Origin: a virus
Virus record (IMG/VR): IMGVR_UViG_3300029616_000014
Coordinates: 1 to 43,132 of that record
Length of the DNA: 43,132 bases
Strand: one strand, 5' to 3'
Shown here: positions 4,668 to 40,160 of the stretch, piece after piece
How positions within the stretch are numbered: position 1 is the stretch's first letter
Layout: every line of letters begins with the position of its first letter
Program-made: the position numbers and the translations under genes
Notes under the pieces: generated by a model
Told to the model about the DNA's origin: nothing
Databases searched by the model: none
What the model saw: the letters and a program-made list of their open reading frames with translations, nothing else

Positions 4668-5897
4668 ATGGCTGTTTTTGATAACCTGAATAAAACTTAT
4701 TCCCCCGGCGTAGCGCCGTCCGTAGTTGAATACTATGAGCGGTCGCTGCTGGAAAACATGAAGCCCGAAATGGTGCACAACCGCGACGCGCAGAAGCGCA
4801 CGTTGCCTGAGCACAACGGCAAGACCGTGAAGTTCCGTCGCTTCACCCCCTTTGCGGCGATCACCGAGCCCCTGGCCGAGGGCGTAACCCCCGCTGGCCA
4901 GACCCTGACCGAAACCGCCTTTACGGCGATGGTTAAGCCCTACGGCGGCCACGTCGAGCTGACCGACGAAATCAACTTCTACCTGCTGGACAACATGCAC
5001 CAGGAGACCGCCAAACTGCTTGGCGACCAGGCCGCGCTGTCTCTGGACACCATCAGCCGCAATGCGCTCAACGCCGGCATGAACGTGCAGTATGCCAACA
5101 GCAAGACTTCCCGCGGCGCGCTGGCTTCTACCGACAAGCTGACCTTTGCCGAGATCAAGACGGCTGTACGCAACCTGAAGCGCAAGAATGTCAAGCCCTT
5201 TGCTGACGGCTTCTATCATGCCATTGTGCATCCTGACGTTGTGCACGACCTGACCGCCGATACCATGTGGGTGGACGTTGCCAAGTATCAGGACAAGGTA
5301 AAGACCGAGCGCTACGAGCTGGGCACCATCTACAAGGTGAAGTTTTTTGAATCCACTAACGCAATGGTGTTTAAGGCGCAGACCTACATCTACGGCACCA
5401 AGGCGTCCCTGACCGCGACCGCGTTTGACGCTGCCACCAAGTGCATGACCGTATCCGATTCCATCAGCGAGGACGATGCGCGCGCCATGACCGGCCTGCT
5501 GGTGAACGTGCAGATCACCAAGTCGAGCGTTGACAGCGTAACGCCCATGTGCATTGAGCGCGTGGACGCGACCAACAAGAAGGTTTACTTCCGCTGGGTG
5601 CCCGCCAGCACGACCGACTGGACGACCACCAACGCCCTGAAGGTTGTTCCCTACGGCGGCGGCGCTTCCGGTGCGGAGGTCTACTCCACCCTGATCTACG
5701 GCGAGAACGCCTTTGGCACCATCGAACTGGGCGGCACTGGCCGGAATGTGCAGATCATCATCAACGCGCCCGGTTCCTCCGGCGCTCTGGATCCCCTGGC
5801 CCAGCGCGGCACCATCGCCTGGAAGGTCAAGGGCTTCTGCACGGTCATTCTTCAGGACGACTTCATTGTGCGTCTCGAATCCGGCGCGACGGCCTAA
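4668..5897 (+). CDS. Major capsid protein (HK97 fold, N4-gp56-family-like)
   Basis: 409 aa. The N-terminal pattern YYERSLLENMKPEMVH...LPEHNGKTVKFRRF...PLAEGVTPAGQ..YGG matches my recollection of N4-gp56-family capsid proteins. A terminator hairpin follows the gene. Confidence 0.85.
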   Translation: MAVFDNLNKTYSPGVAPSVVEYYERSLLENMKPEMVHNRDAQKRTLPEHNGKTVKFRRFTPFAAITEPLAEGVTPAGQTLTETAFTAMVKPYGGHVELTDEINFYLLDNMHQETAKLLGDQAALSLDTISRNALNAGMNVQYANSKTSRGALASTDKLTFAEIKTAVRNLKRKNVKPFADGFYHAIVHPDVVHDLTADTMWVDVAKYQDKVKTERYELGTIYKVKFFESTNAMVFKAQTYIYGTKASLTATAFDAATKCMTVSDSISEDDARAMTGLLVNVQITKSSVDSVTPMCIERVDATNKKVYFRWVPASTTDWTTTNALKVVPYGGGASGAEVYSTLIYGENAFGTIELGGTGRNVQIIINAPGSSGALDPLAQRGTIAWKVKGFCTVILQDDFIVRLESGATA

Positions 5898-11329: not shown

Positions 11330-11341
11330 TTGAAAGGAAAA

Positions 11342-12223
11342 ATGATTGTGAACGAAAAAACGCTTAAAATCATCGAGGCCGCGAAATCCCAGCTTGGCAA
11401 CCCCTATGTATTCGGCATGTGGGGGCGGGAATGCACGCCCTCCGTGCGCCGCCAGTATGCTGGCTATAACCCCAGCCACAAGAGCGCCATCTTCAAGGCG
11501 TGCCCCGTGCTGAGCGGCAAACAGCCCAATTGCGACGGCTGCAAGTGGCAGGGCAAGCTGGCCTTTGACTGCCGGGGCTTTATCTATTGGTGCATCTTCC
11601 AGGGCTACGGCTTTAAGCTCAAGGGCGGCGGCTGCACCAGTCAGTGGGGCTACAAGGTCAACTGGGCGCAGCAGGGCGAAATTGCCGATATGCCCGACCT
11701 GGTGTGCTGCGTGTACCAGTATCGCGGCGGAAAATTCCAGCATACCGGTATCCATATCGGCGGCGGCAAGGTGATCCATTGTTCCGCTGGCGTACAGTGG
11801 GGCGATACGTCCGATAAGGCATGGACGCATTACGCCATTCCGGCAGGGCTGTACACGGCGGAGGAAATCGCGGCGGCGGGAAAGCCCGATACCAGTAAGC
11901 CAACGGAGGGCGTTGTATTTAATCTCAGGCGCGGCAGTAAGGGTGCGGATGTAACCAAGCTCCAAACCACCCTCAACGCCCTGGGATACGACTGCGGCAC
12001 TGCTGATGGCATCTTCGGCGCGAAGACCGAGGCCGCCGTGCGCAATTTCCAGCGCGACCACAGCCTGACCGTGGACGGCATCGCCGGTAAGGCCACGCAG
12101 GCGGCGCTGTATGCGGCTGAGGATACGCCCAAGCCCACCTATACCGTCACCCTGCGCAACGTGCCGCAGGCGGACGCAATCGCGCTTACGGCCAAGTACG
12201 CGGGCGAGATGCTCAAAGAGTGA
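11342..12223 (+). CDS. Endolysin: NlpC/P60 cysteine peptidase + PG_binding_1 domain
   Basis: Catalytic Cys context AFDCRGFIYWC and His context HTGIHIGGGKVIHCS. The C-terminal segment GSKGADVTKLQTTLNALGYDCGTADGIFGAKTEAAVRNFQRDHSLTVDGIAG is a peptidoglycan-binding repeat. Confidence 0.9.
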   Translation: MIVNEKTLKIIEAAKSQLGNPYVFGMWGRECTPSVRRQYAGYNPSHKSAIFKACPVLSGKQPNCDGCKWQGKLAFDCRGFIYWCIFQGYGFKLKGGGCTSQWGYKVNWAQQGEIADMPDLVCCVYQYRGGKFQHTGIHIGGGKVIHCSAGVQWGDTSDKAWTHYAIPAGLYTAEEIAAAGKPDTSKPTEGVVFNLRRGSKGADVTKLQTTLNALGYDCGTADGIFGAKTEAAVRNFQRDHSLTVDGIAGKATQAALYAAEDTPKPTYTVTLRNVPQADAIALTAKYAGEMLKE

Positions 12224-12260
12224 TCTATCGGATCAAAATAAATGAAAGGTACACACCACT

Positions 12261-12494
12261 ATGACAGAAGCCATCATCGTAGCCCTGATTACCGGCGGCA
12301 TCTCGCTGATCGGCACCCTCGCGTCCACCCGCAGCAGCGCCAAATCCACGCAGGCGCTCGTGGATTACAAGCTCAAAGAGCTGAAAGAAAGCGTGGACAG
12401 GCACAACAGCATCATCGAGCGCACGTACAGGCTCGAGGGGCGCATGGAAAACTGCGAACACGATATCCGCGACATCAAGCAGCGGATCAATTAA
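12261..12494 (+). CDS. Holin-like / lysis accessory membrane protein (N-terminal TM + coiled coil)
   Basis: 77 aa. TM segment AIIVALITGGISLIGTLA, then a charged coiled coil. It lies directly after the endolysin. Confidence 0.55.
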   Translation: MTEAIIVALITGGISLIGTLASTRSSAKSTQALVDYKLKELKESVDRHNSIIERTYRLEGRMENCEHDIRDIKQRIN

Positions 12495-12509
12495 GAAGGG
12501 AGAATCACA

Positions 12510-12758
12510 ATGAACAAGATCGACTGGAAGCGTAAGCTCACGTCCCGAAAGTTTTGGATGGCTATTTCGAGTTTTGTCGCCATGCTGGTTGTGGCGTTTG
12601 GCGGCTCCGAAAGTCAGGCTACGCAGATTACAGCCATGATCATGGCCGGTGCTGCCGTGGTCGCCTACATCATCGGCGAGGGTCTGGCCGACGCGTCCGC
12701 CGCAGGCACTTTCGGCACGGAACAGCCTGTTGAAAAACCGCCCGAAGACCTGGGCTGA
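12510..12758 (+). CDS. Holin (two-TM, phiLC3/LL-H-like)
   Basis: 82 aa with RBS gaagggag. Start MNKIDWKRKLTSRKFW, then two TM helices (MAISSFVAMLVVAF and ITAMIMAGAAVVAYIIG). Confidence 0.75.
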   Translation: MNKIDWKRKLTSRKFWMAISSFVAMLVVAFGGSESQATQITAMIMAGAAVVAYIIGEGLADASAAGTFGTEQPVEKPPEDLG

Positions 12759-12772
12759 AAGGGGGGATTGCC

Positions 12773-13756
12773 ATGGCTGGTACGATGAGCGCGGCTGATG
12801 CGCTGAAAAAGCTGCTTGAGCAGTACAACCAGACTTCCTCTTATGTTCCCAAGACCGCTGACCAGATCAGGCAGCAGGCACAGGGCGAATATCAGAGCTA
12901 CTACGACCAACTGAGGCTTGCCGCCCAGCAGGCGCAGGCGCGCAACGACCTTGCATTGCAGCAGCAGCGCGAGGGCTTGCAGCGGACGTATGACAAGCAG
13001 CGCGAGGCCAGCCAGAAGGAATACGAAAACGCCTATTCCAGGGCTGACCGGCAGCAGTTGTCACGCGGCATGCAGCGCTCCAGCTACACGGCGCAGGTGC
13101 TGGCGAATCTCACCCAGGAGGGCGCGGAAGCGCAGCAGGAGCTGTGGGATGCGCAGGGCGCGGCTGAGGGGAACATCGACGCGCAGCGGACGCAGCTTGC
13201 GGCGCAGTTGGCTGACCAGTTATCGCAGTACAGCGCCAGCGAAGCGGCTGACGTGCTGGCGAGAATCAAGCAGCTTGAGGACCAGGAGTATGACCGCGGC
13301 CGTGAAAACGACCAGTACAAGAATTCCCTGTCTGCGCAGATCTATCAGTTCCTTTACCAGGGCGAGCAGGATAAGATTGCTCAGGATCAGTGGCAGAAGG
13401 AATTTGACGAAAACGTGCGCCAGTGGAACGCGCAGTACGGCAGCAAGGGGTCTGGCGGCGGCGGCGGAAACAACTACAACACCAACAAGGATACCACCGG
13501 CAACGGCGGGAACCAGTACACCGATGATACCTTCCTGTCCGACATGAGCCAGGACAGGGCCATTACTAAAACCTCTGCCGGTTTGCCTATGCCTGATCTT
13601 GGCCTCTTTCCTGACCGAATCAACAGCCTGGGCGGGATCAACAGCGTTAAAAGCAAGCTGAACGAAGCATTGAAGAACAAAAGAAAGAAGAAAACCAGCA
13701 CCAACAACGGCGGCGGAGGCGGCGGTCGTTTCTCTCAGGCAATGGTAAGAGACTAA
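12773..13756 (+). CDS. Q-rich coiled-coil / Gly-rich putative internal virion protein
   Basis: 327 aa. Long Q/A/E coiled coil, GGGGG tracts and a basic tail (KNKRKKK). It lies directly upstream of the giant ORF. Confidence 0.45.
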   Translation: MAGTMSAADALKKLLEQYNQTSSYVPKTADQIRQQAQGEYQSYYDQLRLAAQQAQARNDLALQQQREGLQRTYDKQREASQKEYENAYSRADRQQLSRGMQRSSYTAQVLANLTQEGAEAQQELWDAQGAAEGNIDAQRTQLAAQLADQLSQYSASEAADVLARIKQLEDQEYDRGRENDQYKNSLSAQIYQFLYQGEQDKIAQDQWQKEFDENVRQWNAQYGSKGSGGGGGNNYNTNKDTTGNGGNQYTDDTFLSDMSQDRAITKTSAGLPMPDLGLFPDRINSLGGINSVKSKLNEALKNKRKKKTSTNNGGGGGGRFSQAMVRD

Positions 13757-13773
13757 GCAATCGGAGGTAGGCA

Positions 13774-16700
13774 ATGAGCCAGCTATATGATGACGAGAAG
13801 CAGAAAAAGCTGACTACCGTCTCGATGACGAGCAGCAAGCAGAAGCTCAAGCAGGTATTGCAGGAGCAGAAGCAAAAGGAGAAGAATCCTGTTCAGCGCA
13901 AGAACACGAAAATTGGCGCTTCGCAGTCTCCAAAATTTGTGAGCACTACCTTCATCAGTCCGGTGCAGCCTATTGTCCGCACGCAGCCGTCCTCGAACCT
14001 ACAGCGGCTTTTGGCGAAGGTTGAGACGGATAACAGCTGGTATTCCGGCAGCACGCCCACCAGAAGCGAGGCGGCGGCGCGTATCTACACGATATCGCAG
14101 ACTGACCCGGCGCGGGCAAGGAAGCTGAACCAGGCTTTTTCTCAACTGCAGCGTGATCCTTCCAGCCAGTTCTACAATCCATACGGCGCTGCCACGAACA
14201 AGGCCATCCAGGAGCTTGCAAACCTTGGCGTGGATATGAGCGGCGGCATTACGGAGGACTGGCTGGCGAAAAATAGCTGGCTCAAAGCCTACTATCGCAC
14301 CAGCGGCAACAGCGGCACTCCCCTTGCGCCCACCAAGAGCAGCACTGCCGAGCAGAATGCGGCGTACTACTACTATCAGATTCTCAAGGCGCAGGATACA
14401 ACCAATCAGGCAGAAGCCGAGTGGAAGGCCCTGCAGGAGGAGATCGGCTACTGGGCGAACCGCAAGGACCGCAATTACAGCGACGATCAGATCATCAGCA
14501 GGATTGACTGGTCTAAGTATAAGACGCTGGCCAGGATGGACGACGGCGCGGCAAGCGGCGTACCCCTGACGCTGAACAGCTCCATTGGCTACAGCCAGGA
14601 CGCGCTAAAGGGCGTGATCTGGGCGGCGCGCAACGGCAGCACCGGCAACCCGCTGGCTGACAGCGCGAAGGCCGTTTTGGGCGCGGGCAAGACCTGGCAG
14701 GAGGACAAGAGGATCAGCGCGAAGCTCGATCCCAGCAGCAAGGCGTACAGCCCGTACGCTGTCGGCAGCACGCTGGACGACGCGGCGCTGTACTTTGGCG
14801 TGGATTCCTTCAGCAAGGACTGGCTTGCAAACAACCGTAACATTCTGGCCGGCAACGACGCAACGGCCAAGAAAATGTATCAGACGGTGTACAATGCGGA
14901 GCAGACCACGCTGAAGGCGGAGCAGGAGCTGGACGAGCTGCACGCCAATATCGACCGCTATCTTGAATCGACCACTGACCCGGATCAGATTATGCGGATG
15001 ATTGACGGCGATTATAAGACGCTGGACAGCCTGGACGAGAGCATGCGGGATGGCAAGCTGATAGGCACGACCCGCGCGATCAACTACCGCAAGCAGGATA
15101 TCGAGTTTGAGGTGCGCCGTCGCTGTCTGGCCAAGAATACGCAGATCAACGGAGCGGACTATGTGGGCGCTGTGTGGAAGCTGCTGGGCCTGCCGGAGGT
15201 AAAAACCGAGGCCAGTTCGGCTGTGGGCGCTTCCCGCGATAACGCGATCAACGCTGGCGGCGCGACCATTGCGGACGCGGGCACGGACGAGGAAAAGACC
15301 GTATTTAAGACTGCGTACAGCAGCGATTTTGACAACTATCTGACGCAGATCAAGGGCGCGATGGATAGCGGCGTATCCGACCCGCAGGGCGGCTATGACT
15401 ACACGCTCAAGCGCGCTGACCAGTATGCGGCTGAAAACTACATGGACGCGATGGACACCGTTTTGACATACGAGGAAGCCCAGCAGGCCAAGGATGAAGC
15501 CATCAAAAAGCTGAACGACCTGGGCGTTGTCTACGATGAAGACGGCAACATCGACATGACCAACCGCAAGGGCAGCCTGATTGTGCCGGGCGCTGATACG
15601 GCGATGGCTGCTGCCGGGACGAGCGATGCGCCGAGGAAGCTGCGCAAGACCAGTGATGATACGGCTGATGAGATCGACATGCTGCGCAAGGAGATTGCCA
15701 GCGGTTACGGCAAGGATGAGAAGGGAAAGCGCGTAAAGCTGACGGATGAGGAAATCGAGCTAAAGCATTCTCAGCTGCAAGCGCTGCTTCATCCCGAAGC
15801 CATCACGGCAACGCAGAAGGAGATCAACCAGCTTTTGGCTGTGGTGGATGAAAGCACCGAGACCATGGAGCGCACGCAGAAGTCCTATGATAAAGCCAAT
15901 ATCACGCTGAAGAACATCACCGAGGGCTATGCGGTTGCCGACCGGATGCAGGCGCTGACCGGCGTGAAGGCCGGAGACAGCGATTCCACCCTGGCGCAGA
16001 TGACTTATCTGTTCAGCATTGCGCGCAACTATGAGCCGACCGAATATCGATCTGCCAACCTGTATGCGCTGGCCATGGACGGGCAGGGCGCGACCTACGA
16101 GGAAACGGCGGCGGCTGCCAAGCAGGGCATGGCGGAGAACAAGCAGATGATCGAGCAGATCAATTTTGCACTGGGCGAGCTGGAAAGCAAGGGCGCGCAT
16201 CTGCCGGATGACAAGATGGAAAACGTCAAGCGTTATGTCGCTGCGCTTGAGCGCGACGTGCAGGACGCTGAATATTTTCTTTTGCGGGAGAACGACGATT
16301 ACTACCAGGAATCGCAGGACGTAAGCAACGAGATTTTCGCGGCCTGGCAGGATTATAACGAGCTGAACCCGCTGGGCATGCTGAACCCATTTGCCGACCG
16401 GAAGGGCTATACGGCGCTGGATAACGTGGTGGCAATCCGCCTTGAACAGCTGCAAATGGAGGAAGCCAGCAAAACCATTGGGCGGAACCTGAAATCTGAC
16501 AAGGTGATCATGTCCACTGGCAACCCGGCGAAGGACGGTTATTACACAGAGGACATTAACCAGCTCAGCAAAAACGAGTGCATGACCTACCTGTACATTC
16601 GCGGCAAGGAGGGCGTGGACGCTGCGCAGGAATACTACGACCATTTGACCAACGCGGAGTACGGTGTAATCAACATGCGCCGCAATCTGGACTGGACGGC

Positions 16701-19700
16701 GAAGGCGCAGGAATTTGCGGATCAGAACGCTGTGACCGGCGCGCTTGCTTCCGCGCTGACCGTCATTGCTTCCCCTCTTACTGTGGGCGGCATGGTGGAA
16801 TCGATCAAGGCTGATGTGCTGGGGCAGGAGCTGAACCCCTACGCGCGCGGCTTTGTGTACGGCAACATGAGCGGCACGGCGCGTGCGACGGTCAAGGAGA
16901 ATATCTCCGAATCTGTCGGCGGCGGCGCGCGCGGCTGGCTGCTGGGTGCGCTGTATGACGCTTTGATGAGCTACGGCGATTCGATGGTAAGCAGCTACTT
17001 TATGGGCGACCTGGGCGCTGCTGCTGGTTCCGGCGCTGGCAAGCTGCTGGCAAAGACAGGGCTGACCGAGAATTATGTCAATCTCGCGTCCAAGGTGGTA
17101 TCTTCCTTTGTGACGGCTTCTGGCCAGGGCATGCAGGCGGTTGGCAACACCGTGATGGACGCAAAGCTGCGCGGCGCGACTGCGACCGAAAGGCGCGTAC
17201 TTGGCCTTGTTACCTTCCTGGCTGAGACCGCGACGGAAGCGATTGAGGTTGAGACCATCGATTCTGCCATTCACGGCGGCGCTGAACGGGAATTCAAAGA
17301 CACGTTCAAGAAGCTGCTGTTCAACATGTTCAACGAGGGCGCGGGCGAGGGCGTATCCGAATTGGTGGAGGGCATGGCCGACAAGGTTGTGATGGATTAC
17401 AAGTCCAACTGGGCTGAATTCGTACAGCGCTATATTGACGAGGGCATGACCAAGAAGCAGGCCGAAGACGCAGCCTGGAAGGAGATCCTGTGGAACGCAG
17501 CGGAAGCGGCGGCTGTTGGCGGTATCTCTGGCGGCCTTGGCACCGGCCTGGGCTATGTACAGGGCCGTATCTTTGGCGATGGCAGCCAGACGCAGGACGC
17601 TGTGCAGCCAACTGCCGAGACCGTGCAGCAGACGCAGCAGACCGCGCAGGAAACCGTCCAGCAGACCGCACAAGAGCAGACCCAGCAGGAAGCCCCGACG
17701 ATTGCGCAGGAGACGCAGAACGCCGAGGTGGAGAATGCTGCGCCTGAGACCGCAAAAGCCGCCCAAACGCTAAATACAAAGGAAGAAACGCAGCCCTTTG
17801 ACACGGGCGAACGGCTGACGCAGTATGAGGTAAATGAAAAGACCGTGCGGCAGGTGACGGCGCTGACTGCATCCCTGGAGGCGGACGAGGCCAGCCAGAC
17901 GGCGACCATCGGCGCGGCGCTGTTGGGAGATAACGCGACCCCGCAGGAAACGGCCTTTGCCTCCGCGGCGGCGCAGCACATGACCGATACCCTGGGCAGT
18001 GACGCGGCTGTGCGGTTTACCCGCGACGTGCTGCTGCTGGACAGCGACACCAACGGCGTGCGCGCGGCGCTGACTGTTGCGGCGCTGAGCAAGGGAGGGA
18101 ACGCCAGCCAGGTTGCGCAGCGTATGGCGCAGGAGGGCGTAACGGCTGAGGGCATTCAGGAGCTCAAGGCGGCGGCTGACCTCGATGTGCAGGACGCGAA
18201 CGTGACCGCGCAGATGCAGCAGACCGTGCAGGAGAACCAGGTGGCAAAGCGCACGGCGCAGCTGATTGGCGACGGCGCACTGAAAGCCGTACAGCCCTAC
18301 GAGACGGCGGTTGCCCAGGCAAAAAGCGTATTGCGCCAGGCTCAGGGCGAATTGCGCAGGCAGGTAAAGCGCCGGGAAGGGCTTGGGCAGAATCTCCTAT
18401 CTTTACAGGATCAGATCAACAGCGGCACGGCAACCCCGCAGCTGCTTGATACCTTCCGTTCGACCGTCAAGGACATCGAAGGCCAGATCAAGGTTGTGAA
18501 CGAGTACACCCAGCGCGTGGCCAACGCCGAGCAATCGATGCACGACGCGCAGAACCAACTTGACACTGTACGCGACGAAACCCTGCGTCGGGTACGCCAG
18601 CAGGCGCAGCAGGACGTGGCCGACATGCAGGCGCAGCAGCTTGCGGAGCAGGAGGCGGCGAAGGCTGAACAGGCGCAGCAGGCCGAAGCACAGGAAAAGA
18701 CCGGCTATCAGAAGAAGCAGTTTATCCCCTATGATGGCCCTGTCCCGCAGACCGTTGACAACGTGCAGCAGGAAACCGTCGCGATTGACGATGCAAGCTA
18801 TGCGCAGGTGCAGCGGATTGTGGAGGAGGCGCAGGCGGAGGATGAAACGAAACTTAGCGTGCGCAGCATAGTCAAGAGTGCGTTGCGCGCTGCGTTTGGA
18901 AGCCGATTCGACCAAACGCAGGTAACGGTGGACAACGTGCAGTTTGACGGACAGCCGTATACCGTGACGCTGTTCAAGAATCTGATCAACAAGGTTGTTT
19001 CTGACCCTGGGATGACAGTTGATAAACTTTCGGTATTAGGAAACGTCGAACAGGTGTTGAAAAACGCTAATTACCTGACAAGCTCTGATGTTGATAGGAG
19101 CCACCAGAACAAGGATGATGTAATTCGGTATGATTATTTGAATACACCTGTCCGGATAAACGGCGTAGATCAGAATGTAAGATTCACTATTGAGGCTTAT
19201 GATGATCATAACAAGGCGAAAACTTATATGCTAACGGACATAGAAATGACGCCCCCCGCCTCACTGCCCACCACCGGTTACGTACCGGCGCACACAGGAG
19301 ACGGTTTGCTCTCACCTACCGGTCACGTACCGGCGGCGCAGAGCGAGGCGTCATCTTCTACTAATATATTAGCAGACAACGCCGAAAATGTCAATACTGA
19401 AAATATTTCTAATTTGGAATCGCTGAACGATGCGAATGTGCCGCCTGCTACGCCTATGCAGGATAACGCGGATACGCAGAACGATTCCGGGGAGAAATAC
19501 CGCCAGTTTGGCACGCAGACCGCGCAATCGACGGATGCACTGTTCCAGGAGACGCGCGACTATCTGCTGCACAACAGCGTATACGAGGCTGATTCCAACA
19601 CTGAACAGATTGACCGGGCGATTGACTGGGTGCGTGGACAAGCTACGTCGCATGATCCTGCCGGTTACTTTACGGCCAAGTCCGCTGTGCTGGATCCTTC

Positions 19701-22125
19701 CTTCGATTACGCTTCCGCTGACGGACAGGCGCGGATGCTGACGGTCATGCAGATGTCTACCCTGATGGGCGACACGCAGGGGCAGGTGCAGATTGCAGAT
19801 ATCTTCAACCGCCAAGGCACGGTGCTGGCACAGGCATTGCAGGCGCGCAAAATTTTCTATATGATGTCCCCTGCCGCGCAGGCAGCTTCCATTCAGAAGA
19901 TTGCCAACAATCTGAGCCAGGAGAACGGCGTAACCGTTACTGTTCCGCAGGATACGCTTAATCGCCTGAGCCAGGCCAAGACCATGGACGAAGCGCAGAA
20001 GATTCGCAACCAGATTGTAAAGGAAATGTATCAGCAGTTGCCCGCGAACTGGAAATCCCGCCTGAACGGCCTGCGCTACTTTTCCATGCTGGCCAACCCG
20101 AGAACGCATATCCGCAATATCCTTGGCAATACCATTATGCAGGGTACGGCCTATGCGCGAGACGAAATCAACGCGGCCTTGGAGCACTTTTTCCTGCCAC
20201 AGGAGGAGCGCACAAAGGCATTCAAGACGAAGAAGGAATACAGGGACGCGGCGAAGGCGCTGTATACGGAGTTTTCGAGCCTGTTTGACGGGAATACCGG
20301 CAAGTACAACCCGGAGATGAACAGAAGGAACTTCAATACGCAGTGGCTGCAAAAGCTGGCAGACCTGAACACGAACCTGCTGGACAAGGAAGACACCATT
20401 GCGATGAGCCGGAACTTCCTTCATTATTTGGCCGGATTTATGCAGGCGCGCGGCTGGGACGTGAACAATCTGACGGACGCGCAGAAGCATGAAGCCGTGC
20501 AGTACGCCTTCACCAATGCCGAAAAGAACGTGTACCATCAGGCATCCAAGCTGGCTGAATGGCTGAACAAACTGGGCAGAGACAAGGATTCCAGCGTATT
20601 TGACAAGCTCGGACATATGGTGATCGAAGGCGTGCTGCCGTTCAAGAAAACGCCTATCAACATTTTGAAAACGGGCGTTGAGTACAGCCCCATTGGATTG
20701 ATCAATTCCCTGACCCGCGGGCTTTACCAGATGAACCAGTACCGGCAGACGAACGGGCAGAAGGGAATTTCCACGGCGCAGTTTTTGCAGAACCTTTCTT
20801 CCGGCCTGACCGGCGCCGGTCTGATGGGCGTGGGCGCGATGATGATGGCAAACGGCCTGCTGCGCGTAGGCTTTAAGGACAAAGACCCGGATGATGAATA
20901 CGCCAGACTGACCGGCAGCCAGGAATTTTCCATTGAACTGTTTGGCTACTCCTACACCATCGACTGGACGGCGCCTGCCAGCATTCCGCTGTTTATGGGC
21001 GCGTCGATGTACAAGGAGATTGAGAACAGAGACGAGGGGCTGACCTGGGGGAACGCATTCGACGTGTTCATGTCTACGATCTCCGCAATGGCTGAACCCA
21101 TGCTGAACATGACGATGCTTGACGGCGTGAATAGCACAATTCAGTCTGTTGCTTACGCCAATGCGACCGGTTCTTCTGTTGGAGATATCATCATACAATC
21201 GCTGCTCAACCTGTCTACGCAGCTTGTGCCTACAAGCCTTGGCGCTGTTGCGCGCACCGTTGATCCTGTACGCCGAAAGACCTACGCGGACAAGAACCTG
21301 AACATACCGACTTGGCTGCAATACCCATGGGAGCGCGTGCAGAACAAACTGCCAGGGCTGTCGCAGCTTAATATGCCCTACCTGAACGCATGGGGCGAAG
21401 AAGACAGGGAAGATAACCTGCTGATGCGCATCTTTGAAAACTTCCTGTCTCCCGGCTATGTATCCAAGACGGAAGCTGACAGCGTAGAGACCGAATTGCG
21501 CGACATCTCCGTCCGCACGGGTACGAATCTGATTCCTGATCTGCCAAATCAGAGTTTTTCTTTTAATAACGAAAAGATCAACCTGACGGCAGAACAATAT
21601 GAGCAGTACGTCAAGACGCGCGGCAGCCTGATGCACACGGAACTGGAACGGCTGTTTGCGACGGATGAATACAAGGCCATGAGCTTGGGCGCACAGGCAT
21701 CGTGCATTAAGAATATCCAAACGTGGGCAGACGAACAGGGAAAGGTGTCGGTATATCCGGAAAAAACGATTGTACCCAAGTGGATGGATACGAAAGACAT
21801 TGTTCCGGCTGTAATTGAGCGCCGCGCGAGTGAGGACAGGCAGGCGTACCAGAATGAAGCGTATTCCAATATCCAGAACGCCATTGACAACGACGACGCG
21901 GCGACTGCCCGCGATTGGGTGTACGCGCTGAATCAGGCAGGCGTTGAGAACTCAGATATCAAGCAGAAAATGACGACCCTGTATAAATCCGAATACCAGT
22001 ACGCGATCAGAAGCGGCGACCGGGAGACCGCCCGGAAGATCGAATGCATGCTGCTGGCCATGGACATTGGATACAAGGCCAAGAACTTTATCAGCTGGGA
22101 GAAGGACGCTTACAAGGAGGAATGA
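13774..22125 (+). CDS. Giant virion-associated (ejection/pilot, polyvalent-type) protein, 2783 aa
   Basis: Uninterrupted 8352-nt ORF with RBS cggaggt. It has Q-rich linkers (nt about 17580-17760) and hydrophobic segments (GALASALTVIASPLTVGGMV; LTGAGLMGVGAMMMANGLL near nt 20803-20862). No catalytic motif is recognisable by eye. Confidence 0.8.
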   Translation: MSQLYDDEKQKKLTTVSMTSSKQKLKQVLQEQKQKEKNPVQRKNTKIGASQSPKFVSTTFISPVQPIVRTQPSSNLQRLLAKVETDNSWYSGSTPTRSEAAARIYTISQTDPARARKLNQAFSQLQRDPSSQFYNPYGAATNKAIQELANLGVDMSGGITEDWLAKNSWLKAYYRTSGNSGTPLAPTKSSTAEQNAAYYYYQILKAQDTTNQAEAEWKALQEEIGYWANRKDRNYSDDQIISRIDWSKYKTLARMDDGAASGVPLTLNSSIGYSQDALKGVIWAARNGSTGNPLADSAKAVLGAGKTWQEDKRISAKLDPSSKAYSPYAVGSTLDDAALYFGVDSFSKDWLANNRNILAGNDATAKKMYQTVYNAEQTTLKAEQELDELHANIDRYLESTTDPDQIMRMIDGDYKTLDSLDESMRDGKLIGTTRAINYRKQDIEFEVRRRCLAKNTQINGADYVGAVWKLLGLPEVKTEASSAVGASRDNAINAGGATIADAGTDEEKTVFKTAYSSDFDNYLTQIKGAMDSGVSDPQGGYDYTLKRADQYAAENYMDAMDTVLTYEEAQQAKDEAIKKLNDLGVVYDEDGNIDMTNRKGSLIVPGADTAMAAAGTSDAPRKLRKTSDDTADEIDMLRKEIASGYGKDEKGKRVKLTDEEIELKHSQLQALLHPEAITATQKEINQLLAVVDESTETMERTQKSYDKANITLKNITEGYAVADRMQALTGVKAGDSDSTLAQMTYLFSIARNYEPTEYRSANLYALAMDGQGATYEETAAAAKQGMAENKQMIEQINFALGELESKGAHLPDDKMENVKRYVAALERDVQDAEYFLLRENDDYYQESQDVSNEIFAAWQDYNELNPLGMLNPFADRKGYTALDNVVAIRLEQLQMEEASKTIGRNLKSDKVIMSTGNPAKDGYYTEDINQLSKNECMTYLYIRGKEGVDAAQEYYDHLTNAEYGVINMRRNLDWTAKAQEFADQNAVTGALASALTVIASPLTVGGMVESIKADVLGQELNPYARGFVYGNMSGTARATVKENISESVGGGARGWLLGALYDALMSYGDSMVSSYFMGDLGAAAGSGAGKLLAKTGLTENYVNLASKVVSSFVTASGQGMQAVGNTVMDAKLRGATATERRVLGLVTFLAETATEAIEVETIDSAIHGGAEREFKDTFKKLLFNMFNEGAGEGVSELVEGMADKVVMDYKSNWAEFVQRYIDEGMTKKQAEDAAWKEILWNAAEAAAVGGISGGLGTGLGYVQGRIFGDGSQTQDAVQPTAETVQQTQQTAQETVQQTAQEQTQQEAPTIAQETQNAEVENAAPETAKAAQTLNTKEETQPFDTGERLTQYEVNEKTVRQVTALTASLEADEASQTATIGAALLGDNATPQETAFASAAAQHMTDTLGSDAAVRFTRDVLLLDSDTNGVRAALTVAALSKGGNASQVAQRMAQEGVTAEGIQELKAAADLDVQDANVTAQMQQTVQENQVAKRTAQLIGDGALKAVQPYETAVAQAKSVLRQAQGELRRQVKRREGLGQNLLSLQDQINSGTATPQLLDTFRSTVKDIEGQIKVVNEYTQRVANAEQSMHDAQNQLDTVRDETLRRVRQQAQQDVADMQAQQLAEQEAAKAEQAQQAEAQEKTGYQKKQFIPYDGPVPQTVDNVQQETVAIDDASYAQVQRIVEEAQAEDETKLSVRSIVKSALRAAFGSRFDQTQVTVDNVQFDGQPYTVTLFKNLINKVVSDPGMTVDKLSVLGNVEQVLKNANYLTSSDVDRSHQNKDDVIRYDYLNTPVRINGVDQNVRFTIEAYDDHNKAKTYMLTDIEMTPPASLPTTGYVPAHTGDGLLSPTGHVPAAQSEASSSTNILADNAENVNTENISNLESLNDANVPPATPMQDNADTQNDSGEKYRQFGTQTAQSTDALFQETRDYLLHNSVYEADSNTEQIDRAIDWVRGQATSHDPAGYFTAKSAVLDPSFDYASADGQARMLTVMQMSTLMGDTQGQVQIADIFNRQGTVLAQALQARKIFYMMSPAAQAASIQKIANNLSQENGVTVTVPQDTLNRLSQAKTMDEAQKIRNQIVKEMYQQLPANWKSRLNGLRYFSMLANPRTHIRNILGNTIMQGTAYARDEINAALEHFFLPQEERTKAFKTKKEYRDAAKALYTEFSSLFDGNTGKYNPEMNRRNFNTQWLQKLADLNTNLLDKEDTIAMSRNFLHYLAGFMQARGWDVNNLTDAQKHEAVQYAFTNAEKNVYHQASKLAEWLNKLGRDKDSSVFDKLGHMVIEGVLPFKKTPINILKTGVEYSPIGLINSLTRGLYQMNQYRQTNGQKGISTAQFLQNLSSGLTGAGLMGVGAMMMANGLLRVGFKDKDPDDEYARLTGSQEFSIELFGYSYTIDWTAPASIPLFMGASMYKEIENRDEGLTWGNAFDVFMSTISAMAEPMLNMTMLDGVNSTIQSVAYANATGSSVGDIIIQSLLNLSTQLVPTSLGAVARTVDPVRRKTYADKNLNIPTWLQYPWERVQNKLPGLSQLNMPYLNAWGEEDREDNLLMRIFENFLSPGYVSKTEADSVETELRDISVRTGTNLIPDLPNQSFSFNNEKINLTAEQYEQYVKTRGSLMHTELERLFATDEYKAMSLGAQASCIKNIQTWADEQGKVSVYPEKTIVPKWMDTKDIVPAVIERRASEDRQAYQNEAYSNIQNAIDNDDAATARDWVYALNQAGVENSDIKQKMTTLYKSEYQYAIRSGDRETARKIECMLLAMDIGYKAKNFISWEKDAYKEE

Positions 22126-22130
22126 TAACC

Positions 22131-22325
22131 ATGCGTTTTGACCGCATCCATCAATCGCGCATCGACGCGGCGGAGGCAGCCTACGGCCTGACGGACGACG
22201 AGCGCGAGGTGCTGAGCCTGTCCCGGCGCGGGAAATCCGTTATCGCCATCGGCATGGCGCTGGGCATGAGCACCAGAACCGTCAGCCGACGCAGAGCAGA
22301 CATCATGCGCAAGATCAACATCTGA
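22131..22325 (+). CDS. GerE/LuxR-type HTH protein (64 aa)
   Basis: ATG 22131 follows ggagga. LTDDEREVLSLSRRGKSVIAIGMALGMSTRTVSRRRADIMRKI is a textbook GerE-family HTH. Confidence 0.8.
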   Translation: MRFDRIHQSRIDAAEAAYGLTDDEREVLSLSRRGKSVIAIGMALGMSTRTVSRRRADIMRKINI

Positions 22326-22329
22326 CAAC

Positions 22330-22351
22330 GCCCCCTTCGGGGGGCTTTTTT
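22330..22351 (+). terminator. Rho-independent terminator closing the late operon
   Basis: gccccc-ttcg-gggggc followed by tttttt. Confidence 0.9.
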
Positions 22352-22366
22352 ATTTTGCAAAAATGG

Positions 22367-22395
22367 TTGACAAATGGACGTAAAGATGGTATCAT
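22367..22395 (+). promoter_or_regulatory. Near-consensus sigma70/sigmaA promoter
   Basis: TTGACA (22367-22372), 17-nt spacer, TATCAT (22390-22395). Confidence 0.65.
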
Positions 22396-22396
22396 A

Positions 22397-22526
22397 ACAG
22401 CGTCGGGAGATAATCCCGCTGTCAGGAAGCAATTCCTGTGGATTGAAACGAAAACAGAAATGGAAACGATCATGATCTCATGGTCGCATCCGCAAAGAAG
22501 CCTTGCACTGCGCAGGGCTTTTTTGT
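22397..22526 (+). ncRNA. Candidate about 125-nt terminated transcript (sRNA or riboswitch-like leader)
   Basis: Two 5' hairpins: acagc..ggga-gataa-tccc..gctgt, and caggaa-GCAA-ttcctg. An A-rich stretch with repeated gaaac follows. The terminator is gccttgc-actgc-gcagggc + tttttt (22500-22524). Confidence 0.35.
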
Positions 22527-22631
22527 TGCCCAAATGGCGCGAAACTGGCGCGAATGCGGCGCGTTTTCACCCGCGTTTTGTGCGACAATCAGCACACCGG
22601 GAAACCCGGAATAACACAAGGGAGGAATATC

Positions 22632-23207
22632 ATGGACATTGAATACACTCGCAGAGGCCAAGGCAATCTGAATACTGTGCTTGGCGCAATCGGCACGGCT
22701 GGCGCCGTTGGCATTCTGAACGGCGGACTGGGCGGCCTTTTTGGCGGCGCGCGCAATGTGAACGTCAACGGCGAATGCAGCGAAAATCACCTGGTTGATC
22801 GCTATGATGCTTCTCAGCAGGCAAAAATCGCCCAGCTTGAGGCCGAAATTAAGCTGCGCGACAGCAACATCTACACCGATCAGAAGAGCCTTGCGCTGTA
22901 CCAGTACATTGACGGGCAGATCAAGGAGATTCGCGGCGAACTGTCCGATCAGCGCGTACACAACCAGCGCACCGAGGATAGCTTTGTCCTGGCGCGTCAG
23001 GATCTGGCTACCGTTAAGGCCGAGCTGGACGGCAAGATCAAGATGGAAGCCGAAAAGCGCTGCTGCGGCGATAACTCCATCGTGACATACGCAAACGCCA
23101 CCTTCTACCCCAAACAGGTTGCTGACGTGACCGTAGGCACTGCCACCACCGCGCAGAGCACCTACAATCCGCTGCCCAAGTGCGGCGATTGCTGCGGCAA
23201 CAACTGA
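22632..23207 (+). CDS. Hypothetical glycine-zipper / coiled-coil / Cys-rich-tail protein (191 aa)
   Basis: RBS agggagga. N-terminus LGAIGTAGAVGILNGGLGGLFGG, central coiled coil, C-terminus KCGDCCGNN. Hairpin terminators lie on both sides of the gene. Confidence 0.7.
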   Translation: MDIEYTRRGQGNLNTVLGAIGTAGAVGILNGGLGGLFGGARNVNVNGECSENHLVDRYDASQQAKIAQLEAEIKLRDSNIYTDQKSLALYQYIDGQIKEIRGELSDQRVHNQRTEDSFVLARQDLATVKAELDGKIKMEAEKRCCGDNSIVTYANATFYPKQVADVTVGTATTAQSTYNPLPKCGDCCGNN

Positions 23208-23214
23208 CAAAAGC

Positions 23215-23249
23215 GGGAGGGCTGGCACTGACCGGCTCTCTCCGTTTTT
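23215..23249 (+). terminator. Terminator-like hairpin after the glycine-zipper gene
   Basis: gggagggctgg-cactga-ccggctctctc (11 bp including G-U pairs), then cg + ttttt. Confidence 0.5.
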
Positions 23250-23268
23250 CTGATTGGAGGATTACGTA

Positions 23269-23616
23269 ATGGTTAGTATTGAGACCATAGAGCGCGGCCT
23301 TGCGCAGTATATCGACGCTGAATTGCTGCCTAAATTGCCGCAGGACGGCCTTAAAGGCTTTGGCGTGCGGTCAATGGCTACGGCTATTGTAATGCGCGGG
23401 GGACGGCTCCTGAGCGCCTACGCGACCTGGAAGCCTGCGCAGATCATGGGCGCTATTACGCCTGACGGCACAGTTGATATAGATTTTTTGCGCGATGTTT
23501 TCAAGGGCGGCATCCAGCAGGGCGGCCAGAAAATTGATTTGCCGCTGGGTGTGTCGCTGAGAATTACGCCTGAGGATGTAGATCACATATACAGCTACAT
23601 CATGCAGGCGCAGTAA
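23269..23616 (+). CDS. Hypothetical protein (115 aa)
   Basis: ATG 23269 lies 7 nt after ggagga. No recognisable motif. Confidence 0.6.
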   Translation: MVSIETIERGLAQYIDAELLPKLPQDGLKGFGVRSMATAIVMRGGRLLSAYATWKPAQIMGAITPDGTVDIDFLRDVFKGGIQQGGQKIDLPLGVSLRITPEDVDHIYSYIMQAQ

Positions 23617-23626
23617 GGAGGAAATC

Positions 23627-23935
23627 ATGAAAGAACTGAAAGAAGTCATCCGCGACATCGGGGAAATCCTGGACAGCGCGGAGATGTACGCCAAGGAAGC
23701 CGTCAAGCACAAGACGCAGTATCCTTCCCTGGCCGGTGTCTATTGCCGCATCGCGCAGGACGATCTGTCTCACGTCGATATGCTGCATAAGCAGGCCGTT
23801 GAGATGATTGGCGAGCAGAAGCGCTCCGGTGCGACCGTCCCCGAATCCATGCAGGCTGTGTGGGATTTTGAGCACGAGCGCCAGATCGAAGACGTGGCGG
23901 ACGTGAAGCGGCTGATCGATATGTACAAGGAGTAA
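23627..23935 (+). CDS. Hypothetical helical protein (102 aa)
   Basis: RBS aaggagga. Composition predicts an all-helical fold (possible four-helix bundle). No recognisable motif. Confidence 0.6.
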   Translation: MKELKEVIRDIGEILDSAEMYAKEAVKHKTQYPSLAGVYCRIAQDDLSHVDMLHKQAVEMIGEQKRSGATVPESMQAVWDFEHERQIEDVADVKRLIDMYKE

Positions 23936-23943
23936 AATATCAA

Positions 23944-23974
23944 CCGGAGTGCTGATATGTGCTCCGGTTTTTTG
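23944..23974 (+). terminator. Rho-independent terminator
   Basis: ccggagtgc-tgatat-gtgctccgg followed by tttttt. Confidence 0.8.
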
Positions 23975-24020
23975 TACACAATAGATTGGTGTGTACATGT
24001 ACACAATAATGTACATAATA
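23973..24020. repeat. attP arm-type repeats (TGTACA[C/T]AATA x3 plus a TGTACA half)
   Basis: tgtacacaata at 23973-23983 and 23998-24008. tgtacataata at 24010-24020. tgtaca at 23992-23997. Confidence 0.6.
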
Positions 24021-24295: not shown

Positions 24296-25456
24296 TCAGG
24301 CAGTCGGTCGTTTCATCGCGTTTGCAGCTTCTCGTGCATCGCTGTCATCGGGGTGCACATATCTGTCCATCATCTTAGTACTTGACCAGCGCATGATCTT
24401 TTGGAGCACCTGTGGCGGGGTGTGTTCGTCTACAGCGTGAACCGTAGCGGTTGTGTGTCGGCAGGAATAAGGCGTGAGACGGCGCGTAATGCCAGCAGCT
24501 TTCAGCGATTTGTAATACTTTTTGTAAAAGGCCATATCGGTCATAGGGTATAGACGGCCATCCTCTCCGGCCAGCGCCATTGCATCCTCAAGCACAGGGC
24601 AAATGTCATCTGGCAGAAACACGGCAGACTTTTTTCGCGTGTCCGTTTTGATGCCTACGCCGACAATCTCCCTGTTTGGCAGGTCGATCATGGATACGGT
24701 CAGCTTGAGCATTTCGCCGGTCATCATGCCCGTGTATATCATAATCAGCGGAATATAGACGTTTGTATCGCCACGATCATACAACGCCCACAGGAGCCGT
24801 TGTTCTTCGTCCGTAAACGGCTCTCTTTCTTTTTCGTTGATCGCTGGCAAATCTATAAACGACGGCAGGTCTTTGCTACACCATCCATCCGCAGCGGCCA
24901 GATTGAACAAATGGGCAAGCAACTGCTTTGCGTCCCTGGCTGGATAATAAGTAGGGCATGTGGCGTTTACTGCGTTGCGCAGGTCAGCTACCGTGATTGC
25001 GTTGACAGGAACAATGCTGATTGACTTTAGCTTGCTCCAAGCGATTTTGTATGCCGTGCGTTTGCTCTCCGACAGTTTTTCCATTTCATTGCCGTAGTAG
25101 CTTTCCCAATAAAAGGACAGCGGCGGCGCTTTTTTCTTTTCCGCGCCAGACAGCAAGGCCGGACAATAGTTGAGCGCATCGGTTCTGGTGGCAAAACCGC
25201 CCTTGGTTTTTTCCATGCGCACTTTTTCGCCGCTCGCATCTGTATAACAGACCACGACACGCGCCGTCCAGGTCTTCCCGCGCTTGAAGGCGGTTCCCGT
25301 CCCATTGCTGCGCCGCTTTACTCCGCGCTTTTGCGCCTGCCTCATCCCGCACCAGGGGCAGAACGGCGCGCCGTCCGGGATTGCGCCCTTGCATTTTTTG
25401 CATTCCATGGCTTTTTTCTCCATTTTTATCGCATCATCTGTGATTTGCGTGATCAC
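24296..25456 (-). CDS. int: Tyrosine integrase with N-terminal zinc ribbon and arm-binding domain
   Basis: C-terminal segment RHTTATVH...KIMRWSSTKMMDRYVH fits the R..H..Y catalytic pattern. N-terminal segment CKKCKGAIPDGAPFCPWCG is a zinc ribbon. ATG 25408 (MECKKC, RBS ggaga) is the more likely start. Confidence 0.9.
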   Translation of the reverse strand: MITQITDDAIKMEKKAMECKKCKGAIPDGAPFCPWCGMRQAQKRGVKRRSNGTGTAFKRGKTWTARVVVCYTDASGEKVRMEKTKGGFATRTDALNYCPALLSGAEKKKAPPLSFYWESYYGNEMEKLSESKRTAYKIAWSKLKSISIVPVNAITVADLRNAVNATCPTYYPARDAKQLLAHLFNLAAADGWCSKDLPSFIDLPAINEKEREPFTDEEQRLLWALYDRGDTNVYIPLIMIYTGMMTGEMLKLTVSMIDLPNREIVGVGIKTDTRKKSAVFLPDDICPVLEDAMALAGEDGRLYPMTDMAFYKKYYKSLKAAGITRRLTPYSCRHTTATVHAVDEHTPPQVLQKIMRWSSTKMMDRYVHPDDSDAREAANAMKRPTA

Positions 25457-30143: not shown

Positions 30144-30219
30144 GCCGGTGTAGTTCAAGAGGCAGAACGGCGCACTTGTAACGCGCGCGTTGTCGGTTCG
30201 ATTCCGGCCACCGGCTCCA
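30144..30219 (+). tRNA. tRNA-Thr (anticodon UGU), 76 nt with encoded CCA
   Basis: Hand fold: acceptor gccggtg/caccggc, T8, D arm gttc-aagaggca-gaac. Anticodon arm gcgca-cTTGTaa-cgcgc with a 31-39 A.C mismatch. Variable loop gcgtt, T arm gtcgg-ttcgatt-ccggc, discriminator t, CCA. Confidence 0.85.
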
Positions 30220-34401: not shown

Positions 34402-34900
34402 TTACAGGCGCATCCGGGACGAGGTGCCCATGGAGCGGCTGTGCAGCCTGATTGGCATCCCCGTCCGGCACGGCTTTGCGGTGTGCCCGCTGCATCGCGA
34501 CAGCAACGCCTCCATGCGCGTGTACCCGGGAGACAAGGGCTTTTACTGTTTCGGCTGCCATCAGGGCGGGGACGTGATCGACTTCCTGGCGCTGATCACC
34601 AAGCAGAGCCGTTCGGACGCGGCGCGGCAGTTGGCGCAGACGTTTTGTATCCCTGCGAGCAAGGCGGCAGCGAGCCGAAGGGAATCGATTTTAAGCAGGC
34701 AAAAGGCGCGCGAAAATCGCTTGCGCATGCGGGACATAGCAAATGCCCTGGCGGAGATATACCGCGCCCAGAACGCAAATATGAGCCGCTGCGCGCCAAC
34801 CAGAGAGGACGCAGACAAACCATGGCCGGAGGCGTTTGAGACCGCGTGCAACCTGCTGCCGGTGATCGACTGCGCGCTGACCATTGCGGACGAGAGGTGA
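34394..34900 (+). CDS. Stand-alone DnaG-type CHC2 zinc-finger protein (168 aa, no TOPRIM)
   Basis: CPLHRDSNASMRVYPGDKGFYCFGCHQGGDVIDFL is the zf-CHC2 signature. The remainder is helical with no TOPRIM acidic motifs. Confidence 0.75.
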   Translation: MIDYRRIRDEVPMERLCSLIGIPVRHGFAVCPLHRDSNASMRVYPGDKGFYCFGCHQGGDVIDFLALITKQSRSDAARQLAQTFCIPASKAAASRRESILSRQKARENRLRMRDIANALAEIYRAQNANMSRCAPTREDADKPWPEAFETACNLLPVIDCALTIADER

Positions 34901-40156: not shown

Positions 40157-40160
40157 TCGG

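Follow-up and report, generated by a model that had tools for sequence, protein, structure and literature searches.

Is the structured stretch between the late operon and the gene for a 191-aa glycine-rich protein in IMG/VR virus record IMGVR_UViG_3300029616_000014 the leader of that gene, or is it a gene in its own right? We addressed this question over the whole record, a stretch of 43,132 nt hereafter referred to as the window, and compared it with 80 viral and 77 genomic homologous loci. A first-pass annotation, made from the sequence alone, had read the interval as a single-gene module bracketed by terminators, and its 5' RNA as either a riboswitch/attenuator leader or a stand-alone RNA of ~125 nt. 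Our evidence favors the stand-alone RNA, for which we can now propose an identity, that of a type I-C solitary repeat unit. In the reading that we prefer, and to which we assign a probability of roughly 60%, the interval comprises two independent transcription units, namely (i) a small-RNA gene of the RNA anti-CRISPR (Racr) type, where CRISPR denotes short palindromic repeats that are clustered and regularly interspaced, and (ii) a separately promoted cassette of three genes, the first of which encodes the 191-aa protein. The coordinates of all features are collected in Table 1.

The element that carries the first half of this reading is a hairpin with a GCAA loop followed by GGATTGAAAC, which the first-pass annotation had left without a known class and which our analysis identifies as a mimic of a type I-C CRISPR repeat. 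A covariance model, R1, was built solely from seven published I-C repeats, and the window was scanned with the filters of the search turned off. R1 returned a single hit in the 43-kb window, which coincides with the mimic GTCAGGAAGCAATTCCTGTGGATTGAAAC (19.4 bits, E = 7.5e-4), the next best match having an E value of ~8. The first hint of the mimic had been a weak match to the Rfam family CRISPR-DR9 (E = 0.47) in a permissive search of positions 22300-23300. Published I-C repeats share a plan composed of an initial GT, a stem closed by a C-G pair, a loop of 4-5 nt, and the 11-nt handle TGGATTGAAAC; they start with GTC, carry a GC hairpin in the middle, and end in GTGGATTGAAAC. Among them are the repeats of Pseudomonas (GTCGCGCCCCGCACGGGCGCGTGGATTGAAAC, with a near-identical Legionella version), Xanthomonas oryzae (GTCGCGTCCTCACGGGCGCGTGGATTGAAAC), Bacteroides coprophilus (GTCGCACCCTGCGTGGGTGCGTGGATTGAAAC), and gut Clostridia (GTCGCACTCCGCAAGGAGTGCGTGGATTGAAAC, with a GCAA loop).

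The mimic resembles these repeats in its 5' GTC, in its hairpin with a loop of 4-5 nt, and in its identical 3' GTGGATTGAAAC; the handle is identical to that of the published repeats, as are the 12 nt at the 3' end, and with the gut Clostridia repeat it shares both the GCAA loop and the handle. It differs from the published repeats in its stem, which spans 6 bp instead of 7-8 bp, and at position 4, where 7 of 9 phage copies have an A paired with T, whereas all seven published repeats have a G paired with C. Further, in contrast to a I-C CRISPR locus, the mimic occurs once and lacks an array, a leader, and cas genes: R1 scored neither a second repeat nor a pseudo-repeat in the window, and no Cas family was found among the scanned window open reading frames (ORFs), a scan that covered part of the small ORFs.

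R1 also detects solitary copies in the related loci L027, L016, L019, L099, L147, L162, L163, and L165, and it scores the diverged versions in L001 and L159 at 11 bits. Nine phage copies contain seven different stems, every one of which is paired, while the GT and the handle are conserved; the stem, in other words, covaries. A TTGACA-17-TATAAT-like promoter lies 6-30 nt upstream of the mimic in L027, L099, and L147, and a hairpin terminator lies 28-35 nt downstream of it in all of the inspected copies (L027, L099, L147, L016, and L019).

In the window, the mimic is part of a compact unit (22367-22526) in which each element read by the first-pass annotation was recovered: the TTGACA-17-TATCAT promoter, placed after a late-operon terminator with a GC stem and a T-run; the two 5' hairpins, one of them GCAA-capped and followed by a GAAAC-rich stretch; and the internal terminator ahead of the start codon. 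The predicted sigma-70-type promoter, with its upstream TG, matches the consensus at 11 of 12 positions, is the sole one that good between 20000 and 26000, and ends ~20-25 nt upstream of the mimic. Judged by sequence, it is functionally conserved in L001, L159, L162, L163, and L165, and the 5'-terminal hairpin is kept in the same loci, L159 having a single mismatch. Relative to shuffles, the fold of the 131-nt RNA has a z score of -5.1. The tail of ~40-50 nt is not conserved, its sequence differing among the window, L001, and L159; the terminator stem likewise has a different sequence in each relative, with its architecture kept. The version in L165 differs from that in the window by three substitutions, two of which fall in hairpin loops (GCAA to GAAA).

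Racr are viral solitary repeat units that sequester Cas proteins, and two of them, RacrIC1 and RacrIF1, have been experimentally validated (Camara-Wilpert et al. 2023, PMC10651486). RacrIC1 (GTGCGGCCCCGCGAGGGGGCGCGTGGATCGAAAC) is a type I-C unit from a Bifidobacterium pseudocatenulatum prophage (PMC10651486), and many type I-C solitary repeat units have already been catalogued in gut viromes. The unit in the window displays repeat mimicry, is solitary, lies in an intergenic region of a phage, and has a predicted, consensus-matching promoter within 250 bp upstream. Because a solitary mimic with a promoter, and with neither a second repeat nor a cas gene, fits the definition of a viral solitary repeat unit, we consider 22367-22526 to be probably, by analogy, a type I-C solitary repeat unit and a Racr candidate.

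The likeness to Racr extends to a phage-encoded, intergenic RNA with a solitary repeat and a hairpin mimic, to a promoter directly upstream, and to the lack of cas genes; the handle GGATTGAAAC is nearly the same as that of RacrIC1 (GGATCGAAAC). RacrIC1, in contrast, is co-transcribed with acrIC5 and lies 11 nt downstream of it, whereas the RNA in the window stands as a separate unit, which has a consensus promoter, a 5' hairpin, and a terminator dedicated to it but no recognized anti-CRISPR (acr) neighbor. Neither these contigs nor this sequence appeared in the accessible part of the text of the supplements to the Racr paper. The RNA is a further case of the kind described in 2023.

By analogy with RacrIF1 and RacrIC1, we propose that the ~125-nt RNA would be made abundantly. 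A host type I-C Cas5c would then recognize the hairpin plus the UGGAUUGAAAC handle and probably cut before U22439. An RNA that targets nothing would in this way titrate Cas5c and Cas7, so that CRISPR interference against the phage would be weakened. Several observations weigh against this proposal: (i) the mimic stem is shorter and more AT-rich than those of canonical repeats and of Racr, and its score is modest; (ii) no acr gene was recognized near the small RNA; and (iii) the layout of tail plus hairpin would also fit a guide RNA. Should the small RNA be active, temperate phages of dominant gut Clostridia (Oscillospiraceae-type hosts) would carry dedicated, strongly expressed RNA decoys against type I-C systems, whose repeats are among those recorded by CRISPR surveys of the human gut. 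Since the same compact layout of promoter, repeat, tail, and terminator is found repeatedly, with stems that would match the host, it lends itself readily to testing.

The third observation underlies the alternative that, what remains after a Cas5c cut, namely the 11-nt handle, the tail, and the terminator hairpin in the role of a 3' handle, is a CRISPR RNA-like guide that reprograms the host I-C Cascade; like viral Cracr/crlRNAs, such a guide could silence promoters of cas or toxin genes, or it could be directed at a competitor. The tail is spacer-like in other loci, where 28-35 nt precede the hairpin, and in the window 33 nt lie between the mimic and a GTCGC motif. Viral crlRNAs are known, with type I-C ones among them, and the RNA in the window resembles Cracr/crlRNAs, which hijack host Cas proteins, in being phage-encoded and CRISPR-repeat-derived, a hijack of Cas being a prediction here. 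Cracr/crlRNAs, however, comprise two pseudo-repeats around a pseudo-spacer that matches a host promoter (I-C examples exist; bioRxiv 10.1101/2024.10.29.618823), whereas the window has one repeat detectable by R1, and its downstream hairpin is a terminator without handle sequence. Moreover, tail lengths are inconsistent in the closest relatives (37, ~50, and 55 nt), and no target of the tail was found, either as a match elsewhere in the window with up to three mismatches or as an exact 30-mer in viral contigs outside its own loci. We regard a guide function as unlikely and retain the decoy-like Racr candidate.

Whether the small RNA belongs to the 191-aa gene was judged from the relatives. A BLASTN search with the leader against 158 loci, a comparison that the first-pass annotation had recommended, gave matches confined to the closest relatives, and the 306 nt upstream of the gene in the window were matched by the nearest relative (83%) and by nothing else. 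In the closest relatives (L001 and L159-161), the last ~105 nt before the ATG are almost identical, whereas the distal part keeps its architecture only: the promoter is followed by two hairpins and UUGAAAY, and a variable middle leads to the terminator. In L162 and L163, carriers found, like L165, by a pattern search, the small-RNA body aligns with that of the window without a mismatch but is joined to another proximal promoter, untranslated region (UTR), and gene allele. Since the distal unit recurs joined to other promoter, UTR, and gene alleles, the small-RNA unit is, on sequence grounds, a separate mosaic module that is independent of the 191-aa gene. Its position relative to the cassette also varies, being downstream in L027 and L016 and divergent upstream in L099.

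It is thus very improbable that a single transcript starts at the TTGACA promoter and passes through a leader of 235 nt whose internal terminator acts as a riboswitch or attenuator for the 191-aa gene, because the unit is separable from the gene and a proximal promoter architecture is conserved in the gene family itself. Promoter and terminator do stand one after the other upstream of the gene, all on one strand, a full-length fold lets the 5' end pair with the region of the ribosome-binding site (RBS), and some read-through may occur, but the terminator is strong, no conserved antiterminator alternative was seen, and the recommended Rfam searches, at gathering thresholds over the whole window and permissively over 22300-23300, returned only a tRNA and sub-threshold noise. 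A small ORF inside the RNA was dropped as a candidate, having no RBS and not being conserved. Antisense control of the 191-aa mRNA likewise found no support, as in three relatives the small RNA paired with the 5' region of this mRNA no better than shuffles did. In annotation, it should be borne in mind that an apparent structured leader beside a phage gene can be an independent anti-defense RNA.

The second unit is larger than the single-gene module that had been proposed. A partner ORF of ~106-131 aa lies ~50 nt past the 191-aa gene in 144 of 146 loci, and the genes for the 191-aa, 115-aa, and 102-aa proteins form, as their sequences indicate, a conserved cassette (22535-23975) with its own promoter-like region. 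The bracketing of the region by terminators, as read in the first-pass annotation, holds. Its second hairpin, placed directly after the 191-aa gene, exists as described and is very stable (z < -2) in 93% of loci; its role as a terminator is doubtful, with a U-run following in only 5 of 94 family members and absent in the other 89. The hairpin is likely a partial terminator or a 3' stabilizer of the mRNA and not a canonical terminator. It often takes the form GGGGCGGC-nnnn-GCCGCCCC, a sequence conserved across otherwise divergent phages. The predicted fold of the 115-aa protein matches only uncharacterized phage proteins, crAss-like ones included, and for the 102-aa protein the only lead is a weak match, the PA2169 family of four-helix bundles (TIGR02284, E = 0.014).

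The promoter-like region of the cassette has a recognizable grammar. Three GGCGCG direct repeats with an exact 11-nt spacing, an arrangement found nowhere else in the window, precede an extended -10 box; there is no -35 hexamer, and the third repeat sits at the -35 position. Homologous upstream regions cannot be aligned, yet they have the same order of elements: 3-5 direct repeats of 6-7 nt (~11 nt apart), a -10-like box ~20 nt past them, a hairpin or palindrome 6-8 nt later, and then a strong RBS. Of 125 unique upstream regions, 41% contain three or more phased repeats, whereas the figure is 2.2% for dinucleotide shuffles and 3.5% for controls made of real sequence (a 12-18-fold enrichment). 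The enrichment of the 5' hairpin is modest, with a mean z of -1.1 versus -0.3 in the control. Iterons and a terminase-binding site were considered for the phased repeats and dropped on account of their fixed position ahead of the -10 box and the gene.

A candidate regulator is encoded just upstream, as the last cistron of the late operon: a 64-aa stand-alone GerE/LuxR-type helix-turn-helix (HTH) protein, the gene of which starts 5 nt past the stop codon of a 2783-aa gene. An HTH gene lies directly upstream of the cassette in 78 of 141 loci, and it is tightly coupled to the preceding late or lysis ORF, usually within 40 nt, in 66% of 61 homologous junctions. Moreover, the repeat motif tracks the HTH clade, with TGGCGYG, TGACGA, TGCGTCA, ATGTCCC, TGCCGGTT, and TGGGTAA as variants. 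GerE/LuxR-type proteins are terminal-stage transcription regulators that bind repeated sites near -35. The protein in the window resembles GerE of Bacillus subtilis and NarL/FixJ-type regulators in being a stand-alone GerE/LuxR-type HTH (~64-88 aa); unlike GerE, it is phage-encoded as the last late-operon cistron, and its presumed sites are 3-5 direct repeats in strict 11-bp phasing. We infer that the 64-aa protein would bind the repeats and activate the -35-less promoter, so that the cassette would be switched on after late and lysis transcription, as a "post-late" class. Set against this are the 59% of upstream regions that fail the strict three-repeat test and the ~45% of loci that have no adjacent HTH gene. 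Further, binding of the repeats by the HTH protein is suggested by covariation alone, and the sign of the regulation could be repression.

The family of the 191-aa protein counts at least 2,568 homologues, which fall into 425 clusters when grouped at 50% identity; they lie on contigs of ~36-50 kb, binned mostly to metagenome-assembled genomes of Oscillospiraceae and Clostridia; homologues also occur in virulent 179-kb Bacteroides phages and in Alistipes-binned contigs. The features that the first-pass annotation had attributed to it (a Gly-rich N-terminus, a long coiled coil, and a Cys-containing tail) are real by sequence and in the AlphaFold2 model. Residues 9-39 are uncharged and include 12 glycines; cysteines occupy positions 49, 144, 145, 184, 187, and 188; and the modeled monomer forms one helix from residue 57 to 157. 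Conserved across the family are the Gly-rich N-terminus, the helix start CSENH-x-RYE, a coiled coil of variable length, and the C-terminal motif EAxxRCC(G/A)DNxIVxYxNATFYPKxVADVTxGTTTTAQxxYNPxPxCGxCC. Family-wide scans gave weak hits of the coiled-coil type, and 8 of 40 members weakly match the Orbivirus VP5 membrane-penetration protein.

In the Bacteroides phage DAC22, the homologue (4965-5666 of locus L158; MT074141.1, 77555-78256) is interrupted by a single in-frame TAA at codon 68, past which the frame continues to full length, and the record annotates it as two hypothetical proteins. The gene that follows it encodes a 160-aa protein homologous to the partner gene of the Alistipes-binned loci. 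The partners in the Bacteroides phage and Alistipes-binned loci are mutually homologous and different from the usual partner.

As to what the cassette does, the two hairpins could stabilize the 191-aa segment of the mRNA, so that the 191-aa protein would be made in excess over its partners. The protein could be an oligomeric coiled coil with a membrane-seeking Gly-rich N-terminus that acts, as infection ends, on the cell membrane or the envelope and has the 115-aa protein for a cofactor; this last step is the weakest, and we hold the envelope role with low confidence. In architecture only, the N-terminal hydrophobic, Gly-rich segment, the long coiled coil, and the conserved cysteines recall Rz-type i-spanins and class I viral fusion proteins. 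In contrast to these, the protein has no homology to them in sequence or structure, its partner has no lipobox, its hydrophobic segment stays under the transmembrane threshold, and the hosts are mostly monoderm Clostridia. Several results weaken this reading: the best 19-residue Kyte-Doolittle window scores 1.43, under the transmembrane threshold of 1.6 that 16% of the family reach; the AlphaFold2 model has low confidence (predicted local distance difference test score, pLDDT, of 58), and a Foldseek search with it was uninformative; and the protein has no match in Pfam, PHROGs, NCBIfam, PADLOC, or a PDB profile search, so that its function is a matter of inference. A literature search for a glycine-zipper/coiled-coil phage protein returned nothing relevant.

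The broadest form of the proposal is that the HTH gene, the phased repeats, and the cassette constitute an undescribed "post-late" gut-phage regulon, and that the 191-aa family is a new class of membrane-active lysis, release, or entry effectors with a fusion-peptide-like N-terminus in phages of Clostridia and Bacteroidota; in this full form, we rate it as speculative and unlikely to hold. The cassette and its regulatory grammar are undescribed. With >2,500 homologues, no annotation anywhere, and a recognizable grammar of 11-bp phased repeats plus a cognate small HTH protein, the cassette offers a tractable entry into an uncharacterized and very common gut-phage function.

A possible, though doubtful, alternative is that the cassette is an accessory module expressed in lysogeny (for superinfection exclusion, abortive infection, or conversion), which the HTH protein represses late in lytic growth. 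Such a module would be at home between the lysis/late genes and the integrase, with its own promoter and terminators and with neighboring accessory genes that vary between loci; a promoter with an extended -10 box can dispense with a -35 element, and the Gly-rich N-terminus suggests a membrane location. The promoter-gene-terminator unit has the autonomy of a moron, but its distribution is broad, virulent phages included. The family is near-ubiquitous in the phage group and not sporadic, it occurs in the virulent 179-kb Bacteroides phages, and it gives no PADLOC hit. Moreover, the cassette appears to depend on a regulator from the late operon, and where a weak -10 box is accompanied by sites upstream of and at -35, activation is the more typical outcome.

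It is also improbable that the 191-aa protein forms part of the virion, for instance as a trimeric coiled-coil fiber, a needle, or a decoration protein, with the 115-aa protein as its assembly chaperone. The long coiled coil and the conserved, knob-like C-terminal motif would suit a fiber, a small downstream partner is the usual fiber-chaperone layout, an mRNA bracketed by hairpins and equipped with a strong RBS points to high expression late in infection, and the phage looks podovirus-like, with internal virion proteins. The gene, however, is not part of the structural operon, comes after the lysis genes, and adjoins differing structural and lysis contexts across loci; PHROG tail-fiber hits are scattered and confined to single members, and no structural match was found in PDB or BFVD. 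Two lysis functions were rejected. A holin is contradicted by the lack of a clear transmembrane helix, by a separate holin candidate in the window, by a position not beside the lysin, and by the absence of a PHROG lysis hit, and separate holin-like genes exist in other cassette loci too. An i-spanin was dropped in view of the monoderm hosts and of a partner that lacks a lipobox.

Table 1. Positions of the features discussed, in the window and in related loci
Feature	Sequence	Position	Strand	Details
64-aa stand-alone GerE/LuxR-type HTH protein, candidate regulator	window	22131-22325	+	Pfam GerE PF00196, 37.1 bits (cut-off 23.5), E = 2.4e-9
Late-operon intrinsic terminator	window	22330-22351	+	6-bp all-GC stem GCCCCCTTCGGGGGGC, then T-run TTTTTTATTT
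Small-RNA promoter (predicted)	window	22367-22395	+	TTGACA (22367-22372), 17-nt spacer, TATCAT (22390-22395), TG at 22387-88
5'-terminal hairpin of small RNA	window	22404-22418	+	CGGGA-GAUAA-UCCCG; in minimum free energy (MFE) fold
Solitary type I-C CRISPR repeat mimic	window	22421-22449	+	GT, 6-bp stem, GCAA loop, 11-nt handle
GCAA-loop hairpin	window	22423-22438	+	then GGATTGAAAC...GGAAAC
Non-conserved tail of small RNA	window	22450-22491	+	includes hairpin 22467-22486
Small-RNA intrinsic terminator	window	22492-22526	+	15-pair stem (MFE) with A-tract/U-tract extension, then UUUUUU; core stem 22500-22518
(T)GGCGCG direct repeats (three), putative HTH binding sites	window	22535-22575	+	at 22536, 22547, 22558; degenerate fourth, CCCGCG, at 22570
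Proximal extended -10 box	window	22581-22589	+	TGcGACAAT, read from sequence
Stem-loop, predicted mRNA 5' end	window	22597-22609	+	CCGGG-AAA-CCCGG; equivalent hairpins/palindromes with compensatory changes in homologues
191-aa protein gene	window	22632-23207	+	ATG at 22632 behind GGGAGG
Intercistronic GC-rich hairpin	window	23215-23249	+	stem-loop 23215-23242, then CGTTTTTCTG
115-aa partner protein	window	23269-23616	+	AlphaFold2 pLDDT 77
102-aa third gene	window	23627-23935	+	homologue in subset of loci
Strong intrinsic terminator ending cassette	window	23942-23975	+	11-pair stem 23942-23969, then TTTTGT
Solitary I-C repeat mimic	L027	5306-5338	+	
Solitary I-C repeat mimic	L016	5400-5431	-	
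Solitary I-C repeat mimic	L099	5642-5674	-	
Solitary I-C repeat mimic	L147	4858-4886	-	

With regard to the genomic setting, the first-pass annotation had placed the interval at a prophage end near attP. The integrase is indeed next door, a tyrosine integrase on the minus strand (24296-25456) adjoining the cassette; the prophage end is not borne out, because an exact 92-bp terminal direct repeat (1-92 = 43041-43132) shows the window to be a complete, circularly assembled phage genome of ~43.0 kb. Close relatives are 44,150-bp contigs from different samples with rotated start points. Besides the integrase, the hallmark genes for a terminase, a portal, and a major head protein are present.

The lysin is encoded at 11330-12223 and the separate 97-aa holin candidate at 12242-12535, whereas the usual order in other loci has lysin and holin genes just upstream of the HTH gene. 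A 9.4-kb block (12747-22122), which contains a DUF7934 gene and the gene for the 2783-aa LPD3 polyvalent protein, splits the holin region from the HTH gene in the window; it is missing in the relatives L164 and L165, where the segment equivalent to 12492-12746 directly abuts the HTH gene.

Among the remaining genes of the window, a 179-aa DUF1492/sigma-70 region-4 protein (40134-40670), encoded just ahead of the packaging genes, is probably a RinA-like late activator different from the 64-aa HTH protein. A DUF927 primase/helicase-type protein (34884-37829) contains LAGLIDADG and Hom_end homing-endonuclease domains in its middle, which probably mark an intein, and a tRNA-Tyr (GTA) gene lies at 30144-30219 in the early region. 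Accessory genes around the cassette differ from locus to locus. In L022 (2952-3764, minus strand) and L092 (1723-2544, minus strand), a divergent gene adjoining the cassette encodes a 270-aa protein, which may be a defense-type accessory gene product and which, by eye only, resembles a dCTP-deaminase/dUTPase-like domain fused to C-terminal transmembrane helices.

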